NCBI GenBank assembly: GCA_030390025.1 | Contig: JASTWF010000121.1 | Span: 248,001-312,000, forward strand | Source: Squalus acanthias | Lineage: Eukaryota | Direction: 5' to 3' | Length of the DNA stretch: 64,000 nt | Shown here: in pieces, positions 5,994 through 48,707 of the stretch | Layout: the number at the start of each line of letters is the position of its first letter | Numbering within the stretch: position 1 is the stretch's first letter | Notes under the pieces: generated by a model | The model's input: only the letters and a program-made list of their open reading frames with translations | The model's database searches: none | Told to the model about the DNA's origin: nothing | Translations under genes and position numbers: made by a program

Positions 5994-6045
5994 ATGATCA
6001 GTAAAACCCTTTTTGCTGTGACCCTGTCCCTCTGTGTTGCTTTGG
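5994..6045 (+). CDS. Signal-peptide (leader) exon, MISKTLFAVTLSLCVAL-G
   Basis: gagATG start, 17 codons plus 1 nt, basic n-region and hydrophobic core, canonical G|GTAAGT donor (6046-6051). Phase 1 matches the VJ acceptors, giving ...CVALG-AKAPVLLQSP or ...CVALG-ANDPVLLQSP. Linkage to the V exons is inferred. Confidence 0.65.
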
Positions 6046-16445: not shown

Positions 16446-16720
16446 TTAATTTCTAGGCCAATGGCATTGCACTTGTGACCCAGAGCTATGGGGTTATTCA
16501 CAAACAATGCATCACATGATGGTTTCCCATCATTGGAATATGCGAACCAATATTTGAACAATATTCCTCGTTCACCTTCACTTTCAACGTTAAATCCCAG
16601 AAGTGGTGGCAGGACATGTGGATCCAGCGAAACGATTGCCTGTACATTGTTTATTCTCCCGCCTGTTGGATTTAACACAGGAACAGTTTCTCATATGATA
16701 TTCATTTGATATTCGAGCAA

Positions 16721-22460: not shown

Positions 22461-22770
22461 CTCCACCATTCAATCAGATCATGGGTGATCTGTACCTCTA
22501 CTTCATTAACCCACCATTGCTCCACATCCCCTGATACCATTGCCTAACAAAAATCTATCGATCTCAGACTTGAGAGCTGGAATTGACCCCCAGCATCCAC
22601 AGCCTTTTGTGGAGAGAGTTCCAGATTTCCACTGCCCTTTGTGTGATGAAGTGCTTCCTGATTTCACTCCTCATCAGCCTGGCTCTAGTTTTAAAATTAT
22701 GTCCCTTTGTTCTTGATTCCCCCACCAGTGGAAATAGTTTCTCGCTCTCTACCCTGTCGAACCCAATAAG
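22460..22770 (-). mobile_element. CR1-clade LINE 3' fragment (duplicate at about 42260-42570)
   Basis: ORF remnant EKLFPLVGESRTKGHNFK..HFITQRAVEIWNSL. Confidence 0.8.
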
Positions 22771-26342: not shown

Positions 26343-27007
26343 TGAAAGGCGCTATATAAATGCAAGTCTGTCTGTCTTTCTTTCTTTCCCTTCAGTCCGC
26401 CCCAGTTCCCACCACTTCCCGTGACCGCCATGTGGAAGATGGCAGTAGGCTGGAGGTAGCAGTGGTGAAGACCCTGGGGCCGGGGAATGCAGGGAGAGAG
26501 CCTCCTCTTCCTCCAGTCTTGCCCCCACACCCTTCCCTGTGGAGACCTCAGTCTGCTGAGACCTAAACGGCTGTAGCCCTGTTGATCTTTGGGGAACTTC
26601 TGCCCCTTTAAATGCCTGGCCGCCTCGTCTAGTACCGCAGACACGTCCCAATTCCAGTTCTCACATCGCTTTGAATTCTGAGGAAGACTTTCCCACTATT
26701 ATCAGTACAGTAAAGATAATTCCAGTCTGAGAGAAGTAAGCTTGTATTAGAAGCTGTTGTTCAGTGTGAGATCAACATTGCTTTTCCTGTTATATCAGTT
26801 CACCTGTACTGCTGACATCAGCACACCTGCCCCTCAGCAAGTTTATTGTTTGATCTGAATCAGTAACAACCTAACCCACTGGCTCAGTCTCACAATCTGT
26901 TCTCTCTGTTTAACCTGATCTGTACTGCCTGGACTGTCCCTTTAAACACCAGGACACTTTGTAACTTTCAGACCGGTTTTTAAATTATTGATATTTTTCC
27001 CTTAAAG

Positions 27008-27355
27008 GTGCAAAAGCTCCAGTCCTTCTCCAGTCTCCGAGCCTGGAACGTGTCACAGAGGGTCACTCGGCGCGGTTACAGTGCACCATGCGGAACGCCA
27101 GTGTGAGCCACACCAATGTCAACTGGTACCGCCGGCAACAACCAGGGCAAGATATGGAGCGGGTTTTAACACATGAGGCAAGTGGCAGCACACGACGGAG
27201 CCCAGGTTCCACTGACCGTCTCCAGCCTTCCAGAGACACCTCCAATAACAGCTTCATTCTGACAATCACAAAGGTGCAGCCCAGTGACACTGCCGTCTAT
27301 TACTGCTCAGTTTGGCGAAGGATCTACGGGAGCGGGACCCTGCTCAGTGTCACCA
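27008..27355 (+). CDS. Germline-joined Ig/TCR-like VJ exon 1 (V-set domain)
   Basis: Acceptor tttttcccttaaag|, donor |GTGAGT, phase 1-1. Translation (G)AKAPVLLQSPSLERVTEGHSARLQCTMRNASVSHTNVNWYRRQQPGQDMERVLTHEASGSTRRSPGSTDRLQPSRDTSNNSFILTITKVQPSDTAVYYCSVWRRIYGSGTLLSVT has both canonical Cys, the WY, the DTAVYYC and a J-type YGSGT motif. No RSS is present. Confidence 0.93.
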
Positions 27356-27857
27356 GTGAGTACAGTTTACATTACAATAGCCTGAAAGTAATAACCCCTC
27401 ACACATGAATTAATTGGAGACCAGTATCTGATAAAGCGGCAGGATGTGAAGTAAAGTGGTCTGGGCGATGGATTAGCTGGGGGAAGAAGCTGAGCTCAGG
27501 TCGAGTAATTCCCCAAAGTTCGACATCTCTGGGCTTAGCCTGAGGGGGTGTCTGGGGAGGTTCGAGGCGTGTAGGGGTTTGCTGAGCTGAAGAGGAAGTG
27601 TTGTCTTCGCCGAGTCCTAATGTTGGACAGGCATTTGGAGAGAATGGAACAGCCTTGGAATCAATGGAGGAGGTGGAGAGGCAGAGCCGAGTGTTGCTGT
27701 CGATGTCAATGTTGACCCTGCTTCTGGATGATGTTACTGAGGGTGAAATGATGAAGAGGAGGAACCCAAGGATGGTGCCCTGGGGCACAGCAGAGATGGT
27801 CATTCAGACATCGGAGGAGACACCACTGGTGGTGATATAAAGCTAATGGTGTGACCA

Positions 27858-28856
27858 GCAACAACAACAACTTGTATTTATATAGCGCCTTTAATGTAGT
27901 AAAATGTCCCAAGGGGCCTCATGGGAGCGATATTAAACACAATTTGACACCGAGCCACATAAGGAGATATTAGGACAGATGATGAGGTAGATTTTAAGGA
28001 ATGTTTTAAAGGAGGAAAGAGAGGTAGAGAGGCGGAGAGGTTTAGGGAGGGAGTTACAGAGCTTAGTGTCTGGGCAGCTGAAGGCACGGCTGCCAATGAT
28101 TGAACGATTCAAATTGGGGAAGATCAAGAGACCAGAATTGGAGGAGCGCAGATATCTTGGGGGGGTGGGGGAGTTGTGGGGCTGGAGGAGATTACAGAGA
28201 TAGGGAGGGGCGAGGACATGGAGGGATTTGAAAACAAGGATGAGAATTTTAAAGTCGAGGCGTTGCTTCACCGGGATTCAATGCAGGTCAGCGAGCACAG
28301 GGGTGATGGGTGAACGGGACTTGGTGCGAGTTAGGACACGGGCAGCAGAGTTTTTGATGACCTCAAGTTTACAGAGGGTAGAACGTGGGAGGCTGGGCAG
28401 GAGTGCGTTGGAATAGTCAAGTCTCGAGGTAACAAAGGCATGAATGAGGGTTTCAACAGCAGATGAGCTGAGGCAGGGGCGGAGTCGGGCGATGTTATGG
28501 AAGTGGAAATGGGCGGTCTTAGTGATGTCACAGATATGTGGTCGGAAGCTCATCACGGGGCCAAATATGACACCAAGGTTGCGAACAGTCTGGTTCAGCC
28601 TCAGACAGTTGCCAGGGAGACGGATGGAGTCGGTGACTCGGGAACGGAGATTGTGGCCGGGACCGAAGACAACGGCTTCAGTCTTCCCAATATTTAGTTG
28701 GTGGAATTTTCTCTCATCCAGAACTGGATGTTGGACAAGCAGTCTGAGAGTTTAGATACAGTGGAGGGGTTGAGAGAGGTGGTGGTGAGGTAGAGCTGGG
28801 TGTCGTCAGCTTATATGTGGAAACTGACGCTGTGTTTTCAGATGATGTCGCCAATG
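27858..28856 (-). mobile_element. L2-clade LINE 3' fragment (duplicate at about 47257-48256)
   Basis: Minus-strand TLIHAFVTSRLDYSNALL and PVLADLH; (CAA)n tail at the left end. Confidence 0.85.
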
Positions 28857-30095
28857 GAGCAGGAGTGGAACCATGAGAGACCAGTGCCACGGAGGTGGAC
28901 TATTGAACAGAGACTTTTAAAAACATAAGAACATAAGAAATAGGAGCTGGAGTCGGCCAATTGACTCCTCGATCCTGCTCCGCCATTCAATAAGATCATA
29001 GCTGATCTGGTCTTGGCCTCAACTCCACTTTCCTGCCCGCTCCACATAACCCTTGACTCCCTTTTCGTTCAAAAATCTGTCTATCTCCACCTGAAATATA
29101 TTCAACGACCCAGCCTGCACAGCTCTCTGGGAAAGAGAATTCCAAAGATTCACAACCCACTGAGAGAAGAAATTCCTCCTCAAATCCGTTTTAAATGGGC
29201 GACCACTTATTCTGAAACTATGCCCCCTAGTTCTAGACTCCCCCTCGAGGGGAAACATCCTCTCAGCATCTACCCTGTCAAGCCCCCTCAGAATCTTATA
29301 TGTTTCAATAAGATCACCTCTCATTCTTCTGAACTGCAATGAGTAGAGGCCCAACCTGCTCAACCTTTCGTCATACGTCAACCCCTTCATCCCAGGAATC
29401 AACCTAGTGAACCTTCTCTGAACTGCCTCCAATGCAAGTATATCCCTCCTTAAATAAGGAGACCAAAACTGTACGCAGTACTCCAGGTGTGGTCTCACCA
29501 ACGCCCCGTACAGTTGTAGCAAGACTTCCCTACTTTTATACTCCATCCCCCTTGCAATAAAGGCCAACATTCCATTTGCCTTCCTAATTACTTGCTGTAC
29601 CTGCATGCTAACTTTTTGTGTTTCATGTACAAGGACCCCCAGGTCCCTTTGTACCGCAGCATTTTGTAATCTCTCTCCATTTAAATAATAATTTGCATTT
29701 TTATTTTTCCTACCAAAGTGGATAACCTCACATTTCCCACATTATACTCCATCTGCCAGATTTGTGCCCGCTCATTTAACCTATCTATATCCCTTTGGAT
29801 ATTCTTTGTGTCCTCTTCATAACTTGCTTTCCCACCTACCTTTGTATCATCAGCAAATTTGGCTTCATTGCACTCGGTCCCTTCATCCAAGTCATTAATA
29901 TAGATTGTAAACAGCTGAGGCCCCAGCACTGATCCCTGTAGCACCCACTAGTTACAGTTTGCCAACCTGAAGATGACCCATTTATCCCGACTCTCTGTTT
30001 CCTGTTATGATGCGGAGATGCCGGCATTGGACTGGGGTGGACAAAAATGAGAAGTCACACAACACCGGGTTATAGTCCAACAGATTTATTTAAAA

Positions 30096-30133
30096 TTACA
30101 AGCTTTCAGAGCTGTCGCCCCTTCCTCAGGTAA
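30096..30133 (-). ncRNA. Minimal type I hammerhead ribozyme motif (core intact)
   Basis: Minus strand reads UUAC-CUGAGGA-A-GGGGC GACA GCUCU-GAAA-GCUU-GUAA: stem I UUAC/GUAA, stem II hairpin, palindromic stem III (AGCU), the form typical of Penelope pLTRs. Confidence 0.75.
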
Positions 30134-30358
30134 AGTTACAATGAGTGAAACTACAATATTTCACAGTATATAAACACAGAAACTGCAGAGATACAATCTT
30201 TCAGGGAAGGTGTCCTTACATCAAAGACACACCAAGAGCAAAGCCAAGACAATGAGATGTGTCACAGGGGGTCCAACGTGTCAAATCCTGCTGTGTGCAG
30301 TGTTCTTTTTGTGTTTTTTTTTTCAAAACTGGAAAGACAGACAACGATGTCAAGTCAC

Positions 30359-33032
30359 ATTCTGTAGCGTGACATGAACCCGATATCCCTATTGAGGCCG
30401 TCCTCATGGGTGCGGAACTTGGCTATCAGTTTCTGCTAGATGATTTTACGTTGTCGTGTGTCTCGAAGGCCGCCTTGGAGAACGCTAACCCGCAGATCCG
30501 AGGCTGAATGTCCTTGACTGCTGAAGTGTTCCCCGACTGGGAGGTGACAATCCTGCCTGGTGATTGTTGCGCAGTGTCCGTTCATACGTTGTCTCAGTGT
30601 TTGCATGGTCTCGCCGATGTACCATGCTCTGGGGCATCCTTTACTGCAACGTATCAGGTAGACAACGTTGGCCGAGTCACATGAGTATGTACCATGTACC
30701 TGGTGGGTAGTGTCCTCACGTGTGATGACGGTATCTGTGTTCATGATCTGGCATGTCTTGCAGAGGTTGCCGTGGCAAGGTTGTGTGATGTCGTGGTCGC
30801 TGTTCTCCTGACAGCTGGGTAATTTGCTGCGAACGGTGGTACTTTTGAGGTTAGGCGGCTGCTTGAAGGCGAGTAGTGGAGGCGTGGGGATGGCCTTAGC
30901 AAGGTGTTCGTCGTCATCGATGACATGTTGAAGGCTGCGAAGAACATGGCGTAGTTTCTCCGCTCAGGGAAGTAATGGACGACGTAGGGTACTCTGTTGG
31001 TTGTGTCCCATGTTCGCCTTCTGAGGTGGTCTATGCGGTTTTTCGCTGTGGCCCGTCGGAACTGTTGATCGACGAGCCGAGCGTCATATCCCGTTCTTAC
31101 GAGGGCGTCTTTCAGTGTCCGTAGGTGTCCATCGCGTTCCTGCTCGTCTGAGCAGATCCTGTGTATTCGCAGTGCTTGTCCATAGGGGATGGCTTCTTTA
31201 ACGTGGTTAGGGTGGAAGCTGGAGAAGTGGAGCATCGTGAGGTTGTCCGTGGGCTTGCGGTAGAGTGAAGTGCTAAGGCGTCCGTCTTTGATGGAGATTC
31301 GTGTGTCCAGGAATGAAACCGATTCTGAGGAGTAGTCCATGGTGAGTTTAATGGTGGAATGGAACCTGTTGATGTTATCGTGAAGTCCTTTCAGTGATCC
31401 TTCGCCGTGGGTCCAAAGGAAGAAGATGTCGTCGATGTATCTGGTGTACAGCATTGGTTGGAGGTCCTGTGCAGCGAAGAAGTCTTGCTCGAACTTGTGC
31501 ATGAAGATGTTGACGTACTGGGGTGCGAATTTGGTCCCCATGGCTGTTCCGTGTGTTTGGGTAAAAAACTGGTTGTCGAAGGTGAAGACATTGTGGTCAA
31601 GGATGAAGTGAATGAGTTGTAGGATGGCGTCTGGAGATTGGCTGTTGTTGGTGTTGAGTACTGAGGCTGTCGCAGCGATGCCGTCATCGAGGGGGATATT
31701 GGTGTAGAGTGCCGATACGTCCATCGTGGCGAGGAGTGTTCCTGGTTCAACTGGTCCATGGGTGCTGAGTTTCTGCAAGAAGTCTGTAGTGTCGCGACAG
31801 AAGCTGGGGGTTCCCTGTACGATGGGTTTCAGGATGCCCTCGACGTACCCAGAGAGGTTCTCACACAGGGTTCCGTTGCCTGATACGATAGGACGTCCGG
31901 GTGTGTTGGCTTTGTGTATCTTTGGGAGGCAGTAAAAGTCTCCTACGCGGGGAGTACGTGGGATGAGAGCGCGTAGGATGTTTTGAAGGTCTGGATCGAA
32001 GGTCTTGATCAGTCTATTGAGTTGGCGGGTGTGTTCTTTGGTCGGATCTGCGGGTAGCTGTCTGTAGTGTTCCTGGTTGTCCAGTTGTCGGTATGCTTCT
32101 TTGCAATAGTCCATTCTGTTCTGTATAACGATGGCTCCTCCTTTGTCCGCTGGTTTGATGACGATGTTGCGGTTGGTCTTGAGAGCGTGGATGGCGTTGC
32201 GTTGTGCTCGGGTGACATTCTGGACTGTCTTGTGAGTGCGGCTGATGAATCTGGCGTTGATGCATTTCCTGACAGCTTGAGCATATTTGTCAAGCTTAGG
32301 GCAGCGACCCTCCGGAGGGGTCCAATTTGACTCTTTCTTCTTCGGTTGCTGCACTGCGGTTCCCTCTGTCTGCTGTTCCGGATTATTGATTGTCTCATTG
32401 GGTTTGTTGCTGACTTCTTGGGATTTGTGGTAGTATTCCCGGATCCTCATTCTCCTGATGAATTCCTCTGTTTCTGCCGCGAGACCGATAGGGTCCATTT
32501 TGGTGGTGGGGTAGAACTTGAGCCCTAGGGCGAGAACTTCGATTTCGTCTGGTTGAAGGGTGTGGTCGGACAAGTTGACGACGGACTTCCCTGTGGTTGC
32601 AACCATGGTACCGGGGGTGGCTTGGTTGCTGCTGGTGGTGATGCCGAGTTTCTCAAGCTTCCTGTTCTTGATGCGCATGTAGGCAGCGTAGTTCCGTTGC
32701 CTCGTCTGTTTGGCGGTGTCTCGTAGCTGGTCTGCTGTGTCCTGAGCACAGGCTGAGAGCATGGACTCTATCTTGGTTTCGAGGTTGCGGCGTCTGCTGT
32801 AGAGCTGGTCTACGAGATGGTTGAGGAGTGTGCGAGAGGTACGACGGCAAAGTCTCTCAGCGAAGTCTGTGTTGTATGTCAACTTGAGTGGGTTCGTGAT
32901 CTGTAGTCCTTTCTGAATCTTGTCTGCTTTCTTGCATCTCTGTAGATACTTGATGTCTGTGTCAATATGCGCGATCTTCTTGGAGATTCTCTCCACTTTG
33001 AGCCGGCAGTTTGCGGTGTCAATAGTGGTCAT
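30359..33032 (-). pseudogene. Penelope RT + GIY-YIG endonuclease ORF (frameshift near 30965, premature TAG at 30436-30438)
   Basis: Motifs KPADKGG, YCLPKIHK..PGRPIVS, MDVSALYTNIP, GTAMG, RYIDDIF and NVVYLIRC..WYIGET. The inverted copy shows the un-shifted frame. Confidence 0.9.
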
Positions 33033-33119
33033 GATGCGGAGATGCCAGCATTGTACTGGGGTGGACAAAAATGAGAAGTCGCACAACACCAGGTTATAGT
33101 CCAACAGATTTATTTAAAA

Positions 33120-33157
33120 TTACAAGCTTTTGGAGCTGTCGCCCCTTCCTCAGGTAA
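33120..33157 (-). ncRNA. Hammerhead ribozyme motif, core mutated (GAAA to AAAA)
   Basis: Same motif as 30096-30133, with ...GCUCC-AAAA-GCUU. Confidence 0.65.
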
Positions 33158-34700
33158 AGTTACAATGAGTGAATCTACAATATTTCACAGTATATAAACA
33201 CAGAAACTGCAGAGATACAATCTTTCAGGGAAGGTGTCCTTACATCAAAGACACACCAAGAGCACAGCCAAGACAATGAGATGTGGCACAGGGGGTCCGA
33301 CGTGTCAAATCCTGCTGTCTGCAGTGTTTCTTTTTTTGTTTTTTTTGTGGGTTTTTTTTGTGTTTGTTTTTTTTGTGTTTTTTTTAAAAACTGGAAAGAC
33401 AGACAACGATGTCGAATCACGTTCTGTAGCGTGACATGAACCCGAGATCCCTATTGAGGCCATCCTCATGGGTGCGGAACTTGGCTATCAGTTTCTGCTC
33501 GATGATTTTGCATTGTCGTGTGTCTCGAAGGCCACCTTGGAGAACGCTAACCCGCAGATCCGAGGCTGAATGTCCTTGGCTGCTGAAGTGTCCCCTGACT
33601 GGGAGGTGACAATCCTGCCTGGTGATTGTTGCGCGGTGTCCGTTCATACGTTGTCTCAGTGTCTGCATGGTCTCGCCGATGTACCATGCTCTGGGGCATC
33701 CATTCCTGCAACGTATCAGGTAGACAATGTTGGCCATTGACTGTTCCGACGGGCCACAGCGAAAAACCGCATAGACCTCCTCAGAAGGCGAACATGGGAC
33801 ACAATAAACAGAGTACCCTACGTCGTCCAGTACTTCCCCGGAGCGGACAAACTACGCCATGTTCTTCGCAGCCTTCAACATGTCATCGATGACGACGAAC
33901 ACCTTGCTAAGGCCATCCCCACGCCTCCACTACTCGCCTTCAAGCAGCCGCCTAACCTCAAAAGTACCATCGTTCGTAGCAAATTACCCAGCTGTCAGGA
34001 GAACAGCAACCACGACACCACACAACCCTGCCACGGCAACCTCCGCAAGACATGCCAGATCATGAACACAGATACTGTCATCACACGTGAGGACACTATC
34101 CACCAGGTACATGGTACATACTCATGTGACTCGGCCAACGTTGTCTACCTGATACGTTGCAGGAAAGGATGCCCCAGAGCATGGTACATCGGCGAGACCA
34201 TGCAGACACTGAGACAACGTATGAACGGACACCGCGCAACAATCACCAGGCAGGATTGTCACCTCCCAGTCGGGGAACACTTCAGCAGTCAAGGACATTC
34301 AGCCTCGGATCTGCGGGTTAGCGTTCTCCAAGGCGGCCTTCGAGACACACGACAACGCAAAATCATCTAGCAGAAACTGATAGCCAAGTTCCGCACCCAT
34401 GAGGATGGCCTCAATAGGGATATCGGGTTCATGTCACGCTACAGAACGTGACTCGACATCGTTGTCTGTCTTTCCAGTTTTAAAAAAAAAACACAAAAAA
34501 AACAAACACAAAAAAAAGCCACAAAAAAAAACACTGCAGACAGCAGGATTTGACACGTTGGACCCCCTGTGACACATCTCATTGTCTTGGCTGTGCTCTT
34601 GGTGTGTCTTTGATGTAAGGACACCTTCCCTGAAAGATTGTATCTCTGCAGTTTCTGTGTTTATATACTGTGAAATATTGTAGATTCACTCATTGTAACT

Positions 34701-34738
34701 TTACCTGAGGAAGGGGCGACAGCTCCAAAAGCTTGTAA
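34701..34738 (+). ncRNA. Hammerhead ribozyme motif, core mutated (GAAA to AAAA)
   Basis: ttac-ctgagga-a-ggggc-gaca-gctcc-aaaa-gctt-gtaa in the inverted pLTR. Confidence 0.65.
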
Positions 34739-35266
34739 TTTTAAATAAATCTGTTGGACTATAACCTGATGTTGTGCGACTTCTTATTTTTGTTTAATGT
34801 TAGTTAGTCAATCCTCTATCCATGCCAATATATTGCCCCAAACCCCATGAGCTCTTATCTTGTGCAGTAACCTTTTATGTGGCACCTTATCGAATGCCTT
34901 CTGGAAATCCAAATACACAACATCTACTGGTTCCCCTTTATCCACCCTGCTCGTTACTTACTCAAAGAACTCTAGCAAATTTGTCAAACATGATTTCCCT
35001 TTCATAAAACCATGCTGACTCTGCTTGACTGTATCATGATTTTCTAAATGTCTTCTACTACTTCCTTAATAATGGACTCCAGCATTTTCCCAATGACAGA
35101 TGTTAGGCTAACTGGTCTATAGTTTCCAGCTTTCTGTCTCTCTCCTTTCTTGAATAGGGGTGTTAGATTTGTGGTAAGTCTGGAAAGTGTGCTCAATGGT
35201 GTCTGAAGGAGCGAAGAGATCAAAGAGTATGTGAGGGACAGACAGTCGCCATCACAATCACACAGA

Positions 35267-36776
35267 TTCCAACATTCGATAGAATCTGGAACAGTACCCA
35301 TGGATTGGAGGGTAGCTAATGTTACCCCACTATTCAAAAAGGGTGGTAGAGAGAAAATGGGGAATTACAGACCGGTAAGCCTGACATCGGTAATGGGGAA
35401 AATGCTTGAGTCCATTATAAAAGATGTAATAACTGAGCACTTGGAAAACAGTGACAGGATCAGACAAAGTCCACATGGATTTACAAAAGGTAAATCATGC
35501 TTGACTAATCTACTGGAATTTTTTGAGGATGTAACTGGTAAAATAGATAAGGGAGAACCAGTGGATGTGGTGTATTTGGACTTCCAAAAGGCTTTTGATA
35601 AGGTCCCGCAAAAGAGATTAGTGTGTAAAGTTAAGGCACATGGGATTGGGGGCAAGGTATTGACTTCTATAGAGAACTGGTTGGCAGACAGGAAGCAAAG
35701 AGTTGGAATAAACGGGTCTTTTTCCGAGTGGCAGGCAGTGACTAGTGGGGTACCGCAGGGATCGGTCCTTGGACCCCAGCTATTCACAATATATATTAAT
35801 GATCTAGACAAGGGAACTAGATGTAATATCTCCAAGTTTGCAGATGACACAAAGCTGGGTGGGCGTGTGCACTGCGAAGAGGATACCGAGAAACTCCAGG
35901 ATGATTTGGACAGGTTGGGTGATTGGGCAGAAGCGTGGCAGATGCAATATAACATGGATAAATGCGAGGTTATCCACTTTGGTGTCAAAAACAGAAAGGC
36001 AGATTATTATCTGAATGGCAATAGATTGGGAGAAGGGGAAGTGCAATGAGACCTGGGTGTCCTTGTGCACCAGTCGCTGAAGGTAAGCATGCAGGTGCAG
36101 CAGGCGGTTAAGAAGGCAAATGGTATGTTGGCCTTCATAGCGAGAGGGTTTGAGTACAGGAACAAGGATGTCTTGCTGCAGTTGTACAGGGCCTTGGTGA
36201 GACCACACCTTGATTACTGTGTGCAGTATTGGTTGCCTTATCTGAGGAAGAATGTTTTTGCCATGGAAGGAGTTCAGCGAAGATTCACAAGGCTGATACC
36301 TGGGATGGCAGGAATGACGTATGAAGAGAGATTGGGTCGATTGGGCTTATACTCCCTGGAGTTTAGAAGAATGAGAGGGGATCTCATTGAAACTTATAAA
36401 ATTCTGACAGGACAGGACAAACTAGATGCAGGAAGGATGTTCCTGATGGTTGGGGAGTCCAGAACCAGAGGTCACAGTCTAAGGATAAGGGGTAAGCCAT
36501 TTAGGACTGAGATGAGGAGGAATTTCTTCACCCAGAGAGTGGTGAACCTGTGGAATTCTCTGCCACAGAATGCAGTTGAGGCCAATTCATTAAATAGATT
36601 CAAGAAGGAGTTGGATATATTTCTTAAGGCTAAAGGGATCAAGGGATATGGGGAGAAAGCAGGGACAGGGTACTGAATTTGGATGATCAGCCATGATCGC
36701 ATTGAATGGCGGAACAGGCTAGAGGGGCCAAATGGCCTACTCCTGCTCCTATCTTCTATGATTCTATGATTCTATG
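35267..36776 (+). mobile_element. Young CR1-clade LINE, 5'-truncated
   Basis: ORFs 35231-36049 and 36065-36676 ([17 protein letters not shown]); (ATTCTATG)n tail; same family as 23755-26342. Confidence 0.93.
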
Positions 36777-37450
36777 TCAGTTGTGACGTTGCTCAATGCC
36801 GTCTCAGTGTTGTGACAGAAGGCTGATTACAGGATCTGGAACAGTGAGTGGGCAGTAGGTGGGTCCCAACTGCAAGAGGCAAGAGGCAATGGAGTGGGTG
36901 ATCTTGATTGTGGACACAAAGAAGTCAATGTGTTCCTTGTAATTGGTGCCTGAAATGAGCATGGAGGGTGCGGTGAGGTGGGACAGATGGTTAGTGGTGG
37001 AGAGGAGCATTTTCGAGTTGTACCTACTCTCCAGGATTATCTGAGAGTTGAAAGAGGATTTGGCTGCTGAAAGGGAACAGTGGAGCTTGCTATGCTTGAG
37101 TCAGATTTAACAAGGAGCATCTGGGCAGGTCACTCACCAGGTGCTCAAGCTTGTGGCCTATGAGGCCATGGAGGTGGCTGTGAGACCAGGGGCGTGGTGG
37201 GAATGGGAAATTATTGGGGAAAATAGGGAAAGGATATCAACAGTAAATGTGAAACTTTTATGCAGTTGATGGAGTGAGATATTAATGTCATCATGGATGG
37301 AGTGAGGTTGGAGTGTGAGTTGGCACAAAGGAAGGTGGGCCAATTCCAGGGATAGAAACTAGGAGGGGAGATATTTAGGAGAAAGCTGATTAGGAAGGGA
37401 ATAGAAATAGCTTTGGAAAGTTTCAAGGTAGCAGATGTTGACAAGGTCAA

Positions 37451-38724
37451 GTGGGTGTGTGTGTGAGTGTGTGTGAGTGAGTCAGTGAGTGTGAGTGTGA
37501 GTGTGAGAGTACTCAGTGAGTGTGAGTGTGTATGTGAGTGTGAGTGTAGTCAGTGGGTGTGAGTGTGAGTGTGAGTGTAGTCAGTGAGTGTGAGTGTGAG
37601 TGTAGTCAGTGAGTGTGAGTATGAGTGTGAGTGTAGTCAGTGGATGTGAGTGTGAGTATGAGTGTAGTCAGTGAGTGTGAGTGTGAGTGTGAGTGTGAGT
37701 GTAGTCAGTGAGTGTGAGTGTGAGTGTGAGTGTGAGTGTAGTCAGTGAGTGTGAGTGTGAGTGTGAGTGTAGTCAGTGAGTGTGAGTGTGAGTGNNNNNN
37801 NNNNNNNNNNNNNNNNNNNNNNNNNNNNNNNNNNNNNNNNNNNNNNNNNNNNNNNNNNNNNNNNNNNNNNNNNNNNNNNNNNNNNNNNNNNNNNNNNNNN
37901 NNNNNNNNNNNNNNNNNNNNNNNNNNNNNNNNNNNNNNNNNNNNNNNNNNNNNNNNNAGTGTGAGTATGAGTGTGAGTGTAGTCAGTGAGTGTGAGTGTG
38001 AGTGTGAGTGTGAGTGTAGTCAGTGAGTGTGAGTGTGAGTGTGAGTATAGTCAGTGGGTGTGAGTGTGAGTGTGAGTGTAGTCAGTGGGTGTGAGTGTGA
38101 GTGTGAGTGTAGTCAGTGAGTGTGAGTGTGAGTGTGAGTGTAGTCAGTGGGTGTGAGTGTGAGTGTAGTCAGTGGGTGTGAGTGTGAGTGTGAGTGTAGT
38201 CAGTGAGTGTGAGTGTGAGTGTAGTCAGTGAGTGTGAGTGTGAGTGTGAGTGTAGTCAGTGAGTGTGAGTGTGAGTGTAGTCAGTGGGTGTGAGTGTGAG
38301 TGTGAGTGTAGTCAGTGAGTGTGGGTGTGAGTGTAGTCAGTGAGTGTGGGTGTGAGTGTAGTCAGTGAGTGTGGGTGTGAGTGTGAGTGTAGTCAGTGGG
38401 TGTGAGTGTGAGTGTGAGTGTGAGTGTGAGTATAGTCAGTGGGTGTGAGTGTGAGTGTAGTCAGTGGGTGTGAGTGTGAGTGTGAGTGTAGTCAGTGAGT
38501 GTGAGTGTGAGTGTGAGTGTAGTCAGTGGGTGTGAGTGTGAGTGTAGTCAGTGGGTGTGAGTGTGAGTGTGAGTGTAGTCAGTGAGTGTGAGTGTGAGTG
38601 TAGTCAGTGAGTGTGAGTGTGAGTGTAGTCAGTGGGTGTGAGTGTGAGTGTGAGTGTAGTCAGTGGGTGTGAGTGTGAGTGTGAGTGTAGTCAGTGGGTG
38701 TGAGTGTGTGTGTGAGTGTAGTCA
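37451..38724. repeat. GTGAGT/GTAGTCA compound satellite containing the assembly gap
   Basis: Runs of (GTGAGT)n punctuated by GTAGTCA; 163 N at 37795-37957. Confidence 0.97.
37795..37957. other. Assembly gap
   Basis: Run of N. Confidence 1.
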
Positions 38725-41247
38725 TCTCGTTTCTGCCCTAAAGTGGTCTGAATTTGATCTAGTTCAGTTTGCCGATGGTCCAATTCTTGCCCCACCTTCT
38801 TTGCGCTCTACCTTGGTTTGTCTGAGCCTTGGAGTTGCCTCAGCACATTTTCCTTCTCCACCATTGCCTCTTTCCATGCTTTAGCTCATTTTGGCTTTGT
38901 ATTCACATTGCTACTCCTGTGTTCATTCACTTGGTGTTCAGAGCTGGTCTTTTTCTTGACTTCTGCCTCCTTGTCACAGATTTCTGAATCTCTTTTGGTG
39001 AACTCGTGCCTAATGTATTTACAGTCACTTTAGTTTTGGGTTAGCTGCTCCTTCATCTCCTGTTGTAGTTTTGCTTCGAATTACAGAATTTTCACTTCCT
39101 CGTCAGATCACTGTTATTCCATTGCCTGCAAGTCAGTTTCCCTTTGCATCCTTCCTGTTTGAATTCCTGAGGCTCTGTCTTGGGTTTCTTGTCTTTTGTA
39201 GTTCAGGAGGTACATCTGGGGTTTGGTTTTCATTGCTGCTGACCTCTCCACGAGCTCCTGCTGCCCATCCAATGTTTTTCCATGGTTTAGTCCATCCTTC
39301 TGTATCGGACAAATCTCTGCAATCCACAGGATTAAGGTGGGCTATGGTCCTGTCATGATAAACTTTTACCATTCTAAACCTGGGACCAGCTATGGCATTT
39401 TGTTTTAGGGCCACTATCCCTTTACTTCAATTCCAACTCACACATTTGGGTTCCACAATTATCATCCACATCTAAGGTTTATAAGATTTAGCCCAACTTT
39501 GAACCATTTTAAATCACCCAGTCCAAGGTATTCAAACAGTTACACAATCAAAACCAATCATAGGGATGATGTGCACAACTGAGTGAGGTGATTAACTGCT
39601 AATTGCCAGAGTTATCGAGGGAGTTGTTAGATATAGAGGTGCATCAACTAATGTGTACATGATAATGCAGTTCACACTATCACAAGGTTAAGTATTGGGA
39701 ATCATTGAAAGTACTTTGCAGAGTTAATGGGAGGGCCCTCATTTGCATGGGGCAGGCAGGTGAAGTCCCATCTGAGTTTCTTCTTCTTCAAGGTCCTGGC
39801 CGTATCTTCAGTGTTGACCCTAGTTGCCCTGAGAAGGTGGTGGTGGGCCTTTTCCTTGGACCACTGCATTTCTTGTGGTGCTGGTGCAGCCACAATCCTG
39901 CATCTGGCAGCCCACCACTGCAGGATGGGTGTGGTTAGAAATTATGGTCTAGATATGACATGAGACCGGCGTGTTGTGGGCACCTGCTGGGCATCCCCAG
40001 GCATTCCACCGGCAAAGAGGATTCCAATTTCAGACCACTGTGTCACTGGTATCGGCCCTCGGGTAGGTCCTGGGAGGGAGGGAGGAGCTGATTGGGAGAG
40101 AGGAGAGTGATTGTGAATAGGATGAAGGCGATCGGGAGGAATAGAGGGGTTGAATGGGAGTGGGGGAGGGAGCGATAGGGAGGGAGGGTGAGGGCAATCA
40201 GGAGAGAACTGGCAATGGTCTTCGGTGCTGCTGTGGAGGCGGGAGGCACACTCCTGCACCTCCCAGCTCCACATTCAGGGAAGTACTTTATTAAAAAACT
40301 CACCTTTTAGGTGAGGGGCTGTAGTGGTCCCCTTAAGGACCACTGGTTAGGCTGCTTGTAGACCTGGTCTGGCGCTGGCGTCATTCAGGGTAGATTTTGA
40401 GACGAGATCCTTCAACAGCCGTTAGGCTCCTTATTTTCACATGGAAAGGGTCTAACGCTGGACTCAGACTCGGGTCCTGAATGGCTCTTTTTCTATTTTC
40501 ACCAATATGGCCATAGTGGACACTTAGGTCACCGTTTTGTGCCTGTAAAACGAGCGTGGCATCAACCGTGTACGGTCACATCGTGGTTCTGTTACTGAAC
40601 TCGTAATCTAATGACTAAAGATCCGGAGACGTGAGATCAAATCCCACCACAGCAGCTGGGGAATTTAAATTCAGTTAATTAACTAAATCTGGAATAAAAA
40701 GCTAGAATCAGTAATGGTGACCATGAAACTATCGGATTGTTGTAAAAACCCATCTGGTTCACTAATGTCCTTTAGGGAAGGAAATCTGCCGTCCTTACCT
40801 GGTCTGGCCTATATGTGACTCCAGACCCCCAGCAATGTGGTTGACTCTTAACTGCCCTCTGAAATGGCCCAGCGAGACACTCAGCTGTCACCACCTTCTC
40901 AAGGGCAATTAGGGATGGGCAATAAATGCTGGCCTTGCCAGCGACGCCCACAGCCCGTGAATGAATAAAAAAATAATTTCTAGGCCAATGGCATTGCACC
41001 TGTGACCCAGAGCTGTGGGGTTATTCACAAACAATGCATCACATGATGGTTTCCCATCATTGGAATATGCGAACCAATATTTGAACAATATTCCTCGTTC
41101 ACCTTCACTTTCAACGTTAAATCCCAGAAGTGGTGGCAGGACATGTGGATCCAGCAAAACGATCGCCTGTACATTGTTTATTCTACCACCTGTTGGATTT
41201 AACACAGGAACAGTTTATCATATGATATTCATTTGATATTCGAGCAA

Positions 41248-42258
41248 GTTACATAGGAACAGGAGGAGGCCATTCATCCCCTCGAGCCTGTTACACAGGA
41301 ACAGGAGGAGGCCATTCAGCCCCTCAAGCCTGTTACACAGGAACAGGAGGAGGCCATTCAGCCCCTCAAGCCTGTTACACAGGAACAGGAGGAGGTCATT
41401 CGGCACCTTAATCTATTAGACAGGAACAGGAGGAGGCCATTCAGCCCCTCGAGCCTGTTACACAGGCACAGGAGGAGGCTATTCATCCCCTCGAGCCTGT
41501 TACACAGGAACAGGAGGAGGCCATTCAGCCCCCTCGAGCCTGTTAACCAGGAACAGGAGGAGGCTATTCAGCCCCTCAAGCCTGTTACACAGGAACAGGA
41601 GGAGGCCATTCAGCCCCTCGAGCCTGTTACACAGGAACAGGAGGAGACCATTCAGCCCCTCAAACCTGTTACAACAGGAACAGAAGGAGACCATTCAGCC
41701 CCTCGAGCCTGTTACACAGGAACAGGAGGAGATCATTCAGCCCCCGAGCCTGTTATACAGGAACAGGAGGAGGCCATTCAGCCCCTCGAGCCTGTTACAC
41801 AGGAACAGGAGGAGGCCATTCATCCCCCTCGAGCCTGTTATACAGGAACAGGAGGAGATCATTCAGCCCCTCGAGCCTGTTACACAGGAACAGGAGGAGG
41901 CCATTCATCCCCCTCGAGCCTGTTATACAGGAACAGGAGGAGATCATTCAGCCCCTCGAGCCTGTTATACAGGAACAGGAGGAGGCCAGTCGGCCTCTCG
42001 AGCCTGTTACACAGGAACAGGAGGAGGCCATTCAGCCCCTCGAGGCTGTTACATAGGAACAGGAGGAGGCCATTCAGCCCCCTCGAGCCTGTTACACAGG
42101 AACAGGAGGAGACCAGTCAGCCTCTCGAGCCTGTTACACAGGAACAGGAGGAGACCAGTCAGCCTCTCGAGCCTGTTACACAGGAACAGGAGGAGGCCAG
42201 TCAGCCTCTCGAGCCTCTTACAAAAGAACAGGAGGAGGCCAGTCAGCCTCTCGAGCCT
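41248..42258. repeat. 42-bp CR1-tail satellite, about 24 units (paralogue of 16721-22460)
   Basis: Same unit and homologous flanks. Confidence 0.95.
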
Positions 42259-42622
42259 ACTCCACCATTCAATCAGATCATGGGTGATCTGTACCTCTAC
42301 TTCATTAACCCGCCATTGCTCCACATCCCCTGATACCATTACCTAACAAAAATCTATCGATCTCAGACTTGAGAGCTGGAATTGACCCCCAGCATCCACA
42401 GCCTTTTGTGGAGAGAGTTCCAGATTTCCACTGCCCTTTGTGTGATGAAGTGCTTCCTGATTTCACTCCTGATCAGCTTGGCTCTAGATTTAAGATTATG
42501 CCCCTTTGTTCTTGATTCCCCCACCAGTGGAAATAGTTTCTCGCTCTCTACCCTGTCGAACCCAATAAGTTCCTCCCCTTGATTTATTTTTAGTACCCCT
42601 TCTATCGCTGGTATTTTAACTC

Positions 42623-44801
42623 ATTTGGGGCACCACTCCAGCAGTAAGCTCCCTGCTGGAGCAGAGCTAATCTACAGAACAAACGGAAAATTATTCAACC
42701 TCCGTCACCTCCTGTCCAGATCCAAGGTTGTCCCATCCTCTGTCATTGAATTACCATATGCAGATGATGCTTGCGTCTGCGCTCACTCTGAGGTCGAACT
42801 CCAAACCATCGTCAGCATCTTCACTGAAGCGTACGAGAGCATGGGCCTTACACTAAACATCCGTAAGACAAAGGTCCTCTACCAACCTGCCCCCACCACA
42901 CAGGACTGCTCCCCAATTATCAAAATCCACGACGAGGCCTTGGACAATGTGGACCACTTTTCATACCTCGGGAGCATACTGTCAGCAAAGGCAGACGTCG
43001 ATGATGAAGTCCAACAACGCCTTCAGTGTGCCAGTGCAGCCTTCGGTCACCTGAGGAAGAGAGTGTTTGAAGACCAGGGCCTCAAACCCAGCACCAGCTC
43101 ATAGTCTACAGAGCAGTAGAGATACCCGCCCTCCTGTATGCTTCAGAGACATGGACCATGTACAGCAGGCACCTCAAAGCACTAGAGAGGTACCACCAAC
43201 GCTGCCTCCGCAAGATCCTGCAAATCCATTGGCAGGATAGGCGCATCAACGTCAGTGTTCTCGCTCAGGCCAACAGAGATATAGAAACATAGAAGATAGG
43301 AGCAGGAGTAGGCCATTTGGCCCCTTGAGCCTGCTCTGCCATTCGATGAGATCATGGCTGATCATCCAAACTCAGTACCCTGTACCTGCCTTCTCCCCAT
43401 ATCTCTTGATACCTTTATCTTTAAGAAATATATCTAACTCATTCTTGAATATATTTAATGACTTGGCCTCAACTACCTTCTGTGGTAGAGAATTCCACAG
43501 GTTCACCACTCTCTGGGTGAAGAAATTCTTCCTCATTTCTGTCCTAAATGGCTTACCCCTTATCTTTAGATTATGACCCCTGGTTCTGGACTCTCCGACC
43601 ATCGGGAACATTCTTCCTGCATCTAGTTTGTCCAGACCTGTCAGAATTGTATATGTTTCGATGAGATCCCCTCTCATTCTTCTATACTCCAGCGAGTATA
43701 AGCCCAATCGACCCAATCTCTACTCATATGTCATTCCTGCCATCCCAGGTATCAGCCTTGTGAATCTTCGCTGAACTCCTTCCATGGCAAGAACATCCTT
43801 CCTCAGATAAGGCGACCAAAACTGCACACAGTACTCAAGGTGTGGTCTCACCAAGGCCCTGTACAACTGCAGCAGGACATCCCTGTTCCTATACTCAAAC
43901 CCTTTCGCTATGAAGGCCAACATACCATACGCCTTCTTCACCGCCTGCTGCACCTGCAAGCTTACCTTCAGCGACTGATGCACAAGGACACCCAGGTCTC
44001 GTTGCACTTCCCCTTCTCCCAATCTATTGCCATTCTGATAATAGTCTGCCTTTCTGTTTTTGACGCCAAAGTGGATAACCTCGCACTTATCCACGTTATA
44101 TTGTATCTGCCACGCTTCTGCCCACTCACTCAAACTGTCCAAATCATCTTGGAGTTTCTCGGTATCCTCCTCGCAACACACACGCCCACCCAGCTTTGTG
44201 TCATCTGTAAAACTGGAGATATTACATTTAGTTCCCTTATCTAGATCATTAATGTATATTATGAATAGCTGGGGTCCAAGGACCGATCCCTGCGGTACCC
44301 CACTAGTCACTGCCTGCCACTCGGAACATCCCCAGCATCGAAGCTTTGACCACACTTGATCAGCTCCGATGGATGGCCCACATCGTCCGCATGCCCAATA
44401 CGAGACTCCCAAAGCAACTGCTCCACTCGAAGCTCGGACACATCAAGAGAGCCGCAGGTGGGCAGGGGAAACGTTTCAAGGACATCCTCAAAGCCTCCTT
44501 GAAAAAGTGGAACGTCCCCACCAACACCTGGGAATCCCAAGACCACACAAAGTGGAGGAGAAGCATTCGGGAAGGCGCCGAACACCTCGACTCTGTTCAC
44601 CGGGAGCAAGCGGAAGGCAAGCGCAAACAGCGGAAGGAGCGCACATCAACCCAAGCACCCCACCCACCCGCCCCTTCAACCACCGTCTGCCCCACCTGTG
44701 ACAGAGACTGTAGGTCCCACATTGGACTCATCAGTCACCTGAGAACTCATTTTTGGTGTGGAAGCAAGTCATCCTCAGTTCCAAGGGACTGCCTAAGAGA
44801 A
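42623..44801 (+). mobile_element. RTE-clade LINE, 5'-truncated, interrupted by a CR1
   Basis: ORFs 42625-43104 (YADD, GLTLNIRKTK, FSYLGS) and 44346-44852; same family as 4809-5586; absent from copy 1. Confidence 0.92.
43276..44324 (-). mobile_element. Young CR1-clade LINE nested in the RTE
   Basis: ORFs 43720-44412 and 43372-43716; TSD AACA at 43272-43275 and 44325-44328. Confidence 0.92.
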
Positions 44802-45451
44802 GATTTTATCCTCTTGCTCTACTGTGAAAATGGAAACAAAGTGCTCCTTTAATAAATCACCATCACCTTGTTATTGGCCCAGATATTAACGGGGAGGTGG
44901 AAAATTGATTGAGGGCCTGGCTGGTGAGCGGGAGCACAAACAAGCAGCAGGGAGTCACAGCCGGGGACCCATGGGGACGGACCCTGGCAGCTAGTGGGGG
45001 GACACTCGGGGCCACGATCGGTGGGGGGTGGAGGGGCGAGAGGTCAGAGTGTGACCGGGGGCGGGGGCTGAGAGGTAGGGCCGGAATCGGGGGGGATTGT
45101 TTCAAAGCTCGGGGCCGTGATCGGGGGAAGGGGGGTAGCCCGGTTTATGGAGGCCCAAGGCTTCCTTGTGAAGCCCAGAGGATCACTCCTGCCCCTCCTG
45201 GCCCACAAGAAAACCTGAAAGATAAATGTCAAACTTTCCAGCTGGGCCTCTTCTGTCAGCCCTTCCCTATGTTGTTGGTCCCAACATGGACCAGGGCGAC
45301 TGGATCTCAGCCTCCCTTTCACCCTAATCTTTCTCTTCCTGTCAGGTCCAGCCTGTGACGCTGGGAGTGATCAGAGATTACTGCCCTGGAGGTTCTGCTT
45401 CTTAATCCAGAAAGACTGTAGCCCTGTTGGAGGGGCAGGTCTTGGGTCCAC

Positions 45452-45790
45452 ACCGTCTTTTGGATGAGACGTTAAACCGAGGCCCCGTCTGCTCTCTCAG
45501 GTGGACGTAAAAGACCCCACGGTCACTATTTCGAAGAAGAGCAGGGGAGTTCTCCCCGGTGTCCTGGCCAATATTTATCCCTCAACCAACATCACTAAAA
45601 CAGATTATCTGGTCATTATCACATTGCTGTTTGTGGGAGCTTGCTGTGCGCAAATTGGCTGCTGCGTTTCCCAAATTACAACAGTAACTACACTTCAAAA
45701 GTACTTCATTGGCTGTAAAGCGCTTTGGGACGTCCAGTGGTCATGAAAGGCGCTATAGAAATGCAAGTCTGTCTGTCTTTCTTTCTTTCC
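45452..45790 (+). mobile_element. Deu-SINE (SacSINE1-like), uninterrupted
   Basis: Deu core and L2-like tail; empty site for the CR1 at 23755. Confidence 0.85.
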
Positions 45791-46408
45791 CTCCAGTCCG
45801 CCCCAGTTCCCACCACTTCCCGTGACCGCCATGTGGAAGATGGCAGTAGGCTGGAGGTAGCAGTGGTGAAGACCCTGGGGCCGGGGAATGCAGGGAGAGA
45901 GCCTCCTCTTCCTCCAGTCTTGCCCCCACACCCTTCCCTGTGGAGACCTCAGTCTGCTGAGACCTAAACGGCTGTAGCCCTGTTGATCTTTGGGGAACTT
46001 CTGTCCCTTTAAATGCCTGGCCGCCTCTTCCAGTACCGCAGACACGTCCCAATTCCAGATCTCACATCGCTTTGAATTCTGAGGAAGACTTTCCCACTAT
46101 TATCAGTACAGTGAAGATAATTCCAGCCTGGGAGAAGTAAGCTTGTATTAGAAGCTGTTGTTCAGTGTGAGATCAACATTGCTTTTCCTATTATATCAGT
46201 TCACCTGTACTGCTGACATCAGCACACCTGCCCCTCAGCAAGTTTATTGTTTGACCTGAATCAGTAACAACCTAACCCACTGGCTCAGTCTTACAATCTG
46301 TTCTCTCTGTTTAACCTGATCTGTACTGCCTGGACTGTCCCTTTAAATACCAGGACACTTTGTAACTTTCAGACCGGTTTTTAAGTTATTGATATTTTTC
46401 CCTTAAAG

Positions 46409-46753
46409 GTGCAAATGATCCAGTCCTTCTCCAGTCTCCGAGCCTGGAACGTGTCACAGAGGGTCACTCGGCGCGGTTACAGTGCACCATGCGGAACGCC
46501 AGTGTGAGAGACACCGATGTCCACTGGTACCGGCAACTACCAGGGCAAGATATGGAGTGGGTTTTAACACATGAGGCAAGTGGCAGCACACGAGGGAGCC
46601 CAGGTTCCACTGACCGTCTCCAGCCTTCCAGAGACACCTCCAATAACAGCTTCATTCTGACAATCACAAAGGTGCAGCCCAGTGACACTGCCGTCTATTA
46701 CTGCTCAGTGTGGGGATGGATCTACGGGAGCGGGACCCTGCTCAGTGTCACCA
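46409..46753 (+). CDS. Germline-joined Ig/TCR-like VJ exon 2 (V-set domain)
   Basis: Acceptor tttttcccttaaag|, donor |GTGAGT, phase 1-1. Translation (G)ANDPVLLQSPSLERVTEGHSARLQCTMRNASVRDTDVHWYRQLPGQDMEWVLTHEASGSTRGSPGSTDRLQPSRDTSNNSFILTITKVQPSDTAVYYCSVWGWIYGSGTLLSVT has the canonical WYRQ.PG, EW and YGSGT motifs. No RSS is present. Confidence 0.93.
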
Positions 46754-48707
46754 GTGAGTACAGTTTACATTACAATAGCCTGAAAGTAATAACCCCTCAC
46801 ACATGAATTAATTGGAGATCAGTATCTGATAAAGCGGCAGGAGGTGAAGTAAAGTGGTCTGGGCGATGGATTAGCTGGGGGCAAGAAGCTGAGCTCAGGT
46901 CGAGTAATTCCCCAAAGTTCGACATCTCTGGGCTTAGCCTGAGGGGGTGTCTGGGGAGGTTCGAGGCGTGTAGGGGTTTGCTGAGCTGAAGAGGAAGTGT
47001 TGTCTTCGCCGAGTCCTAATGTTGGACAGGCATTTGGAGAGAATGGAACAGCCTTGGAATCAATGGAGGAGGTGGAGAGGCAGAGCCGAGTGTTGCTGTC
47101 GATGTCAATGTTGACCCTGCTTCTGGATGATGTTACTGAGGGTGAAATGATGAAGAGGAGGAACCCAAGGATGGTGCCCTGGGGCACAGCAGAGATGGTC
47201 ATTCAGACATCGGAGGAGACACCACTGGTGGTGATATAAAGCTAATGGTGTGACCAGCAACAACAACAACTTGTATTTATATAGCGCCTTTAATGTAGTA
47301 AAATGTCCCAAGGGGCTTCACGGGAGCGTTATTAAACACAATTTGACACCGAGCCACATAAGGAGATATTAGGACAGATGACGAGGTAGATTTTAAGGAA
47401 CGTTTTAAAGGAGGAAAGAGAGGTAGAGAGGCGGAGAGGTTTAGGGAGGGAGTTACAGAGCTTAGTGTCTGGGCAGCTGAAGGCACGGCTGCCAATGATT
47501 GAACGATTCAAATTGGGGAAGATCAAGAGACCAGAATTGGAGGAGCGCAGATATCTTGGGGGGGTGGGGGGTGTTGTGGGGCTGGAGGAGATTACAGAGA
47601 TAGGGAGGGGTGAGGACATGGAGGGATTTGAAAACAAGGATGAGAATTTTAAAGTCGAGGCGTTGCTTCACCGGGAGTCAATGTAGGTCAGCGAGCACAG
47701 GGGTGATGGGTGAACGGGACTTGGTGCGAGTTAGGACACGGACAGCAGAGTTTTTGATGACCTCAAGTTTACAGAGGGTAGAACGTGACTGGCTGGGCAG
47801 GAGTGCGTTGGAATAGTCAAGTCTCGAGGTAACAAAGGCATGAATGAGGGTTTCAACAGCAGATGAGCTGAGGCAGGGGCGGAGTCGGGCGATGTTACAG
47901 AAGTGGAAATGGGCGGTCTTAGTGATGTCACGGATATGTGGTCGGAAGCTCATCACGGGGCCAAATTTGACACCAAGGTTGCGAACAGTCTGGTTCAGCC
48001 TCAGACAGTTGCCAGGGAGACGGATGGAGTCGGTGACTAGGGAACGGTGATTGTGGCCGGGACCGAAGACAACGGCTTCAGTCTTCCCAATATTTATTTG
48101 GAGGAATTTTCTCTCATCCAGAACTGGATGTTGGACAAGCAGTCTGAGAGTTTAGATACAGTGGAGGGGTTGAGAGAGGTGGTGGTGAGGTAGAGCTGGG
48201 TATCGTCAGCTTATATGTGGAAACTGATGCTGTGTTTTCAGATGATGTCGCCAATGGAGAAGGAGTAGAACCATGAGAGACCAGTGCCACGGAGGTGGAC
48301 TATTGAACAGAGACTTTTAAGAACATAAGAACATAAGAAATAGGAGCTGGAGTCGGCCAATTGGCCCCTCGATCCTGCTCCGCCATTCAATAAGATCATG
48401 GCTGATCTGGTCTTGGCCTCAACTCCACTTTCCTGCCCGCTCCACATAACCCTTGACTCCCTTTTCATTCAAAAATCTGTCTATCTCCACCTTAAATAGA
48501 TTCAACGACCCAGCCTCCACAGCTCTCTGGGAAAGAGAATTCCAAAGATTCACGACCCACTAAGAGAAGAAATTCCTCCTCATCTCCGTTTTAAATGGGC
48601 AACCAATTATTCTGAAACTATGTCCCCTCGTTCTAGATTCCCCCTCGAGGGGAAACATGCTCTCTGCATCTACCCTGTCAAGCCCCCTCAGAATCTTATA
48701 TGTTTCA

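Follow-up and report, generated by a model that had tools for sequence, protein, structure and literature searches.

Probable diversification of a predicted binding face between two tandem VJ domains of a Squalus acanthias receptor gene

Introduction

CEACAM-type paired receptors, in which clustered genes with an immunoreceptor tyrosine-based inhibition motif (ITIM) or activation motif (ITAM) carry similar distal immunoglobulin variable (V) domains, are the closest described counterparts of the gene treated here. This is an open receptor gene of the shark Squalus acanthias whose two distal V exons, V1 and V2, lie in a stretch of 64,000 nucleotides (assembly GCA_030390025.1, contig JASTWF010000121.1, positions 248,001 to 312,000, forward strand; hereafter the window). 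For CEACAM pairs of Xenopus, conversion followed by nonsynonymous change on the CC'C''FG face has been described, and both CEACAM1/CEACAM3 and the Xenopus ceacam genes resemble the shark locus in the clustering of ITIM and ITAM genes whose distal V domains are alike, in exon conversion within the binding domains with change on that same face, and in an ITAM whose YxxL is split by a phase-0 intron with a YxNx upstream (PMC5112662). Compared by features, the shark domains differ in keeping the canonical disulfide and a J motif, within an all-VJ ectodomain that has no IgC2-type domains. The CEACAM N domain, by contrast, lacks the canonical disulfide and is followed by IgC2-type domains. Membership in CEACAM was rejected on the C23-W41-C104 residues, the J motif and the all-V ectodomain.

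Other families share single features with the locus. Teleost NILT receptors have V-only ectodomains and clustered ITAM and ITIM members, but carry a second cysteine pair (CX3C to CX7C) that is absent from the J-bearing V1 and V2 (PMC3022915); since V1 and V2 contain no cysteines beyond the canonical two, NILT/TREM/CD300 membership was rejected. TREM2, likewise V-only, binds anionic ligands through a basic patch (bioRxiv 10.1101/2020.02.24.963264), a precedent for the charge differences discussed below, but signals via an adaptor. A non-rearranging joined VJ domain is also found in the immunoglobulin superfamily members CD79, NITR, SIRP, CD8, NKp30 and PRARP (PMC11599192) and in UrIg/UrIg2 (PMC12227049), whereas the shark gene has a tandem VJ ectodomain without a C1 or I domain and built-in ITAM or ITIM cassettes. 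As its third V domain (V3) reads directly into the transmembrane segment, membership among the VJ-C1 proteins SIRP, PRARP and UrIg was rejected. The nearest V relatives, the single-exon VJ domains of sigma-2 light chains, are followed by a light-chain constant (CL) exon, unlike the shark receptor with its tandem V domains, transmembrane segment and tyrosine tail; the window gene was rejected as a sigma-2 light chain because V3, transmembrane segment and tail are in frame and its V domains fall outside the sigma-2 clade. Such a receptor family is not mentioned in the available part of PMC6795676, and no paper describing it was found in literature searches, whose coverage excluded most subscription journals and supplements.

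Differences between V1 and V2

Both exons have AG/GT ends, phase 1-1 and an open frame, and each encodes a complete V-set domain with the joined J motif. Codon realignment returned exactly the divergence reported in the original prediction, an earlier note made from the sequence alone: 12 substitutions, of which 11 are nonsynonymous and one synonymous (V101, GTT/GTG), plus one 3-base codon indel, with 29 codons of the first framework region (4-32) and 37 of the third (64-100) identical. The residues (V1/V2) are K2/N, A3/D, S33/R, H34/D, N36/D, N38/H, Q44/L, R51/W, R63/G, R103/G and R104/W, and R41 is extra in V1. Net charge (K+R-D-E) falls from +6 in V1 to -2 in V2, in agreement with the shift of about +8 given before. 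Four changes had been assigned to the first complementarity-determining region (CDR1) and three to CDR3; the changes themselves are confirmed, but by IMGT boundaries only three lie inside CDR1 and three inside CDR3, N38/H being IMGT 40 at the start of strand C and R63/G lying on strand C''.

An AlphaFold model of V1 (predicted local distance difference test, pLDDT, 94.4) is an antibody-type V domain best matched by VH/VHH structures (TM 0.83-0.89). The changes fall before strand A (codons 2 and 3), in the BC loop (33, 34, 36), on strand C (38, 41), in the CC' loop (44), on strands C' (51) and C'' (63) and in the FG loop (103, 104); none lies on strands B, D or E. Scatter over the model would have spoken against selection, and the changes are instead gathered in the BC and FG loops and strands C, C' and C'', where they would occupy the top and front face of the V domain, their side-chain exposure being judged from V-domain geometry.

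Clustering and charge direction, which the original prediction had named as the signal, both exceed neutral expectation in 20,000 simulations whose mutation spectrum, CpG included, was taken from the flanking introns; the features examined in these and all other chance tests on V1 and V2 were chosen after the data had been seen. Half of the 12 substitutions lie inside IMGT CDRs (P=0.0097). A charge difference of at least 7 from substitutions has P=0.00065, or P=0.002-0.006 when the number and region of nonsynonymous changes are held as observed, and a plain sign test on charge-changing substitutions (8:1) gives P=0.039. By a definition of antibody 'contact' codons that takes in 25 of 114, 9 of the 12 substitutions fall within them (P=5e-5), the nonsynonymous ones numbering 8 against 1.15 expected at the flank rate.

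The same sites vary in other sharks, which were compared as proteins through 150 homologous domains (16 unclassified ones left out; the sequences are not independent). Among the 35 distal-type domains, the 23 positions of highest entropy out of 110 include 8 of the 9 testable sites (P=3e-4), and the Trp of the EW motif (codon 51, the EW site) is the fourth most variable site. Mean charge is +2.3 in distal domains and -1.2 in the 99 stalk domains. As expected of a binding site, the changes are thus clustered on one surface (exposure inferred), and other lineages show change at these positions too.

Within the S. acanthias genome, five exons share the flanks of V1, namely V1, V2, g99, g580 and c3786, which makes five distal-type exons in four genes. 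When V1 and V2 are set against the other 17 of 19 full-length paralogous exons, four of the eight charge units come from rare V1 states (K2, H34, N36, R63 and R103, less S33) and four from rare V2 states (D3, no R41, W51 and W104), so the excess of basic residues in V1 gives no support to an adaptation of V1 alone, as had been suggested. Net charge is +5 in g99 and +11 in c3786, compared with +2 in g580 and -1 to +4 in 14 stalk exons. Residues private to V1, g99 and c3786 include nine that are more basic, two neutral and none more acidic (binomial P=6e-5, post hoc), whereas private residues of V2 and g580 (2 basic, 3 neutral, 4 acidic) and of the stalk exons (3, 14 and 2) show no such bias. 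Codon 34 mutated in two different ways (D>H and D>V), as did codon 38 (H>N and H>R), and c3786 acquired basic residues of its own. Comparison of these exons therefore supports a directional charge shift that recurs independently in a related paralogue.

The codon models M0, M1a and M2a, whose inflation by conversion tracts is taken up below, were fitted by purpose-written code with branch lengths fixed in proportion, after codons 1-7 and the indel column had been dropped; their site lists, obtained by naive empirical Bayes, played no part in judging individual sites, and the set of 19 exons leaves out two truncated exons (L020, L021) and four fragments. Over all 19, the ratio of nonsynonymous to synonymous rates (omega) in CDRs is 4.85 (P=0.007), and M2a is preferred over M1a both there (P=1e-8) and in the five distal exons (P=0.0015). 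In the wide CDRs of the latter, 14 nonsynonymous variants stand against 3.3 expected, and 1 synonymous against 1.3.

Gene structure and paralogues

One open gene, with the order leader, V1, V2, V3, transmembrane segment and tail (Table 1), has V1 and V2 as its distal domains. The V3 exon lies past the end of the window (C262:312380), followed by a transmembrane exon and three tail exons that form an ITAM cassette with YxNx and YxxL-x7-YxxL, the first YxxL being split by a phase-0 intron. V3 reads open straight into the transmembrane exon with no C1 or CL domain intervening. Further on, an ITIM cassette has a second transmembrane exon and three tail exons with IVYATL, IHYAVL and SEYAAV. Splicing is in frame to either cassette and yields at least 462 amino acids with the ITAM cassette, whose last exon was not found, or 482 with the ITIM cassette. 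No V exon was found between the two, and the ITIM cassette is therefore either an alternative tail or a remnant of a neighbouring gene; one gene with both cassettes could, on its predicted exons, yield activating and inhibitory isoforms. The ITAM cassette (C262:321023-334626) and the ITIM cassette (348073-360176) look complete and stand in tandem behind the same V exons (L049-L053), and gene models of other sharks mix ITAM and ITIM cassettes (P0003, P0082).

Table 1. Features of the receptor gene and of its distal-type paralogues (positions in the window unless a contig is named).
Feature	Position	Strand	Description
Leader exon	5994..6045	+	17 codons and 1 base, phase-1 GT donor; located by tblastn with shark homologues, with frame and splice check
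Intron-1 segment	14081..17717	+	repeated at 38755-42258 (93-95%); upstream part of the duplicated unit
Duplicated block around V1	26342..29307	+	2968 bases, 97.4% identical to 45743-48707
V1 exon	27008..27355	+	germline-joined single-exon VJ domain, distal type, net charge +6; 4 nucleotides from the stop-bearing g99 exon
Junction	38722..38950	+	GT-rich satellite runs unbroken into the intron sequence of the second unit
Duplicated block around V2	45743..48707	+	partner of 26342-29307
V2 exon	46409..46753	+	germline-joined single-exon VJ domain, distal type, net charge -2; groups with paralogue g580
g99	C262:99849-100196 (L009)		distal exon with TAA stop in CDR3; leader, third V exon and transmembrane exon look intact
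g580	C262:580909-581256 (L010)		distal exon of an ITIM gene
c3786	C3786:48138		distal exon of an ITAM gene

The genes of g99, g580 and c3786 have one such distal exon each (40 kb examined), with ITIM cassettes behind g99 and g580 and ITAM cassettes behind c3786 and the window gene. As in paired receptors, similar binding domains thus sit on genes with opposing tails, their distal exons being 91-99% identical, and the binding exons exchange sequence, as seen in conflicting partitions and shared multi-base tracts. V1 is only a third as far from g99 as from V2 (12 nucleotides), while V2 is nearest to g580 in the downstream flank (35/1954). Of the 29 informative sites of that flank, 7 unite V2 with g580 (bootstrap 77), 12 unite g99 with c3786 (bootstrap 100) and 4 unite V1 with V2. 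Four exon sites unite V1 with g99, contradicting the flank grouping of g99 with c3786, and this conflict points to conversion. Judged by these groupings, V1 and V2 are apparently not a simple local duplicate pair, V2 grouping with one paralogue and V1 with two others. The contig C3786 may hold an allele of the window gene instead of a paralogue, as its leader matches at 100% and its transmembrane exon at 99%.

Several features of the repeats and paralogues were noted in passing. The g580 exon has 10 changes within a 15-base tract of the CC' loop (codons 47-51). No leader for g580 turned up in its vicinity, and C262:927014-927284 holds an orphan leader on the minus strand. A tandem array with a period near 42/84 bases occupies intron 1 at 16713-22466 (about 5.7 kb, first unit) and 41240-42258 (about 1 kb, second unit). 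Nested inverted repeats of 94-97% identity (30004-34793) lie between V1 and V2, and a reading frame inside them (33741-34367) is presumably GIY-YIG/Penelope-like. Within this genome, distal exons cluster with stalk exons and apart from the equivalent domains of other sharks, and the additional Arg codon behind WY is present in 15 of the 19 exons here and in 1 of 150 domains elsewhere; together these indicate strong concerted evolution.

Expression was approached through read contigs from four runs, taken to be RNA, whose species is not on record. They cover the V exon and show leader-V and V-V3 junctions, one contig of run X3 connecting the leader exon to the start of a V exon. A separate look-up of RNA records with V1 listed none, which carries no weight for or against its expression.

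A family of multi-VJ receptors

The 19 full-length exons are 85-100% identical to V2 and lie mostly on one 1.06-Mb contig, with further V types present; the setting, as predicted from these exons, is a cluster of about 1 Mb of C-less multi-VJ receptors. A database search returned 103 family proteins among 673 candidates, 102 of them named from sharks, rays or a chimaera and all with automatic labels; the closest (84-88%) are from Pristiophorus japonicus. The homologues are type I membrane proteins with two to nine tandem VJ domains and ITAM- or ITIM-type tails, and an Atlas look-up with a homologue gave generic V-set clusters only. Further divergent joined VJ exons, matching other subtypes of the family, occur at C515:293550-294020 and 361540-362010, C2076:520076 and C3676:71816, and a different joined V exon outside these subtypes at C284:280825 (L077).

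The nearest V relatives are about 50 germline-joined exons on C3553, C24:46.6-48.9 Mb and C185, several with stops. Of these, the single one examined has a light-chain C exon behind it and matches named light chains of sharks, among them 'type I', which is sigma-2 (also NS5, sigma-cart) (PMC4279169); a lambda label for the C3553 exons was dropped on account of these named matches. Sigma-2 V domains, closest in both the genome and the database, are 47-56% identical to V2. Mean identity of the receptor domains is 43.9% to sigma-2 and 26.7-29.1% to V domains that we take to be IgH-, lambda- and TCR-like. Trees keep receptor and sigma-2 domains apart, with no nesting in sigma-2, and the sister relationship is not settled (approximately unbiased test, P=0.29).

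Alternative explanations

According to our analysis, the best reading is paired-receptor diversification of the binding face accompanied by gene conversion, and the differences between V1 and V2 on balance probably record diversifying selection on a predicted ligand-binding face. Of the interpretation in the original prediction, the clustering on a binding surface and the directional charge shift beyond neutral expectation held, while the shift as a property of V1 alone and the analogy to single-domain antibodies did not.

Several results weigh against selection. The ratio of 11:1 is not significant by itself (P=0.10 for at least 11 of 12 nonsynonymous in the neutral simulation), as had been conceded from the start, and the exon is not more diverged than its flanks (12/345 versus 63/2618, Fisher P=0.27). 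Clustering weakens to 4/7 (P=0.03) when the CDR1 and CDR3 clusters are each taken as one event. In the five distal exons, the CDR omega of 4.6 falls short of significance (P=0.07), and a framework omega of about 1.2 gives no sign of purifying selection. M2a is likewise preferred in the 14 stalk exons by themselves (P=3e-6), an indication that multi-base conversion tracts inflate the codon tests. The trio of V1, g99 and c3786 was picked after the charges had been seen, and the flank support for V2 with g580 is modest. The nearest copy of V1, g99, carries a stop, and the CDR1 residues H34/N36/N38 of V1 are in none of the contigs listed for the four runs (26 of 44 records).

To the main rival, mosaic drift, we give a minor but real chance. 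It holds that evolution in a fast-recombining tandem cluster was relaxed or neutral, that short tracts and clustered mutations made the differences, and that the charge direction is chance noticed afterwards. The framework omega, the conflicting trees and the stop in g99 speak for it, as does the movement of multi-base tracts (codons 13, 47-51, 91-92 and 100) between copies, stalk exons included; moreover, a single step separates Arg codons from those for Gly and Trp, and a CpG site lies at codon 51. Against it, a donor for the CDR1 tract of V1, sought genome-wide, gave two matches only, V1 and g99 themselves. The charge shift also stays improbable in the CpG-aware simulations with changes held as observed, the same sites are hypervariable in other sharks, and c3786 gained basic residues separately.

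It is improbable that V1 is a passenger exon, skipped or lying in a decaying copy, with differences of no present function. The stop in g99, the absence of the V1 CDR1 from the listed contigs and the large inverted repeats and long interspersed nuclear element (LINE) pieces between V1 and V2 would fit such an exon, but the splice sites and frame of V1 are intact, a 74-base contig of run X2 matches its CDR3-J end with one difference where V2 has three, and gene models from other sharks commonly have distal domains in tandem.

An assembly artefact, with two alleles set in tandem as V1 and V2, is very improbable. The satellite that separates the units contains a short run of N, and C3786, maybe another haplotype of this gene, has one distal exon; yet the sequence is unbroken across the unit junction, which lies about 0.8 kb from that run and has paralogue-type bases, its first 33 bases matching g580 and g99 and not the first copy in the window, and the units differ by 2.4% plus several kb of insertions.

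Hardly credible, and largely refuted, is the suggestion that V1 adapted to an unpaired membrane-distal position in the manner of single-domain antibodies: R51 does align with the Trp of antibody heavy-chain V interfaces and V1 is the most distal domain, but Arg occupies the EW site in 14 of 19 paralogous exons, including exons beside the transmembrane exon, and in 30 of 150 domains of other sharks (22 of 99 stalk-type, 7 of 35 distal-type), and V2-type exons are themselves distal in genes with one copy. A VHH/VNAR-type change, with the interface Trp lost specifically in an unpaired distal domain, was accordingly rejected, and the charge shift likely stems from selection for different ligands rather than from loss of a partner domain.

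Significance

Returning to paired-receptor diversification, we posit that conversion and unequal crossing-over redistributed the differences among the copies of the gene. An unequal crossover may have put a g580-like unit behind V1, and the activating receptor would as a result now bear look-alikes of the binding domains of two inhibitory receptors, following a decoy logic as in CEACAM pairs. In the lineage of V1, g99 and c3786, the binding face would have been driven to become more basic and would as such suit an acidic ligand, for example a microbial adhesin, lipopolysaccharide (LPS), teichoic acid, a sulfated glycan or an anionic lipid; that this ligand is truly polyanionic is possible but doubtful.

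As binding-face diversification with conversion is already known in paired receptors, the contrast between V1 and V2 is by itself unsurprising. Its interest lies in finding the pattern in a large receptor family of cartilaginous fish, for which the literature searched held no description and whose domains are most like sigma-2 V exons. Being 13 events and eight charge units apart, V1 and V2 also form a ready matched pair for a ligand search. We regard as rather unlikely the full combination of tandem inhibitory look-alikes, directional selection for positive charge towards a polyanionic microbial surface, and descent from a sigma-2 exon or a shared immediate ancestor with one; if true, it would mean an innate paired-receptor repertoire made from an antigen-receptor V gene. 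The sigma-2 link, if true, would be relevant to the question whether innate receptors took over their joined VJ exons from antibodies or whether such exons are older than antibodies.

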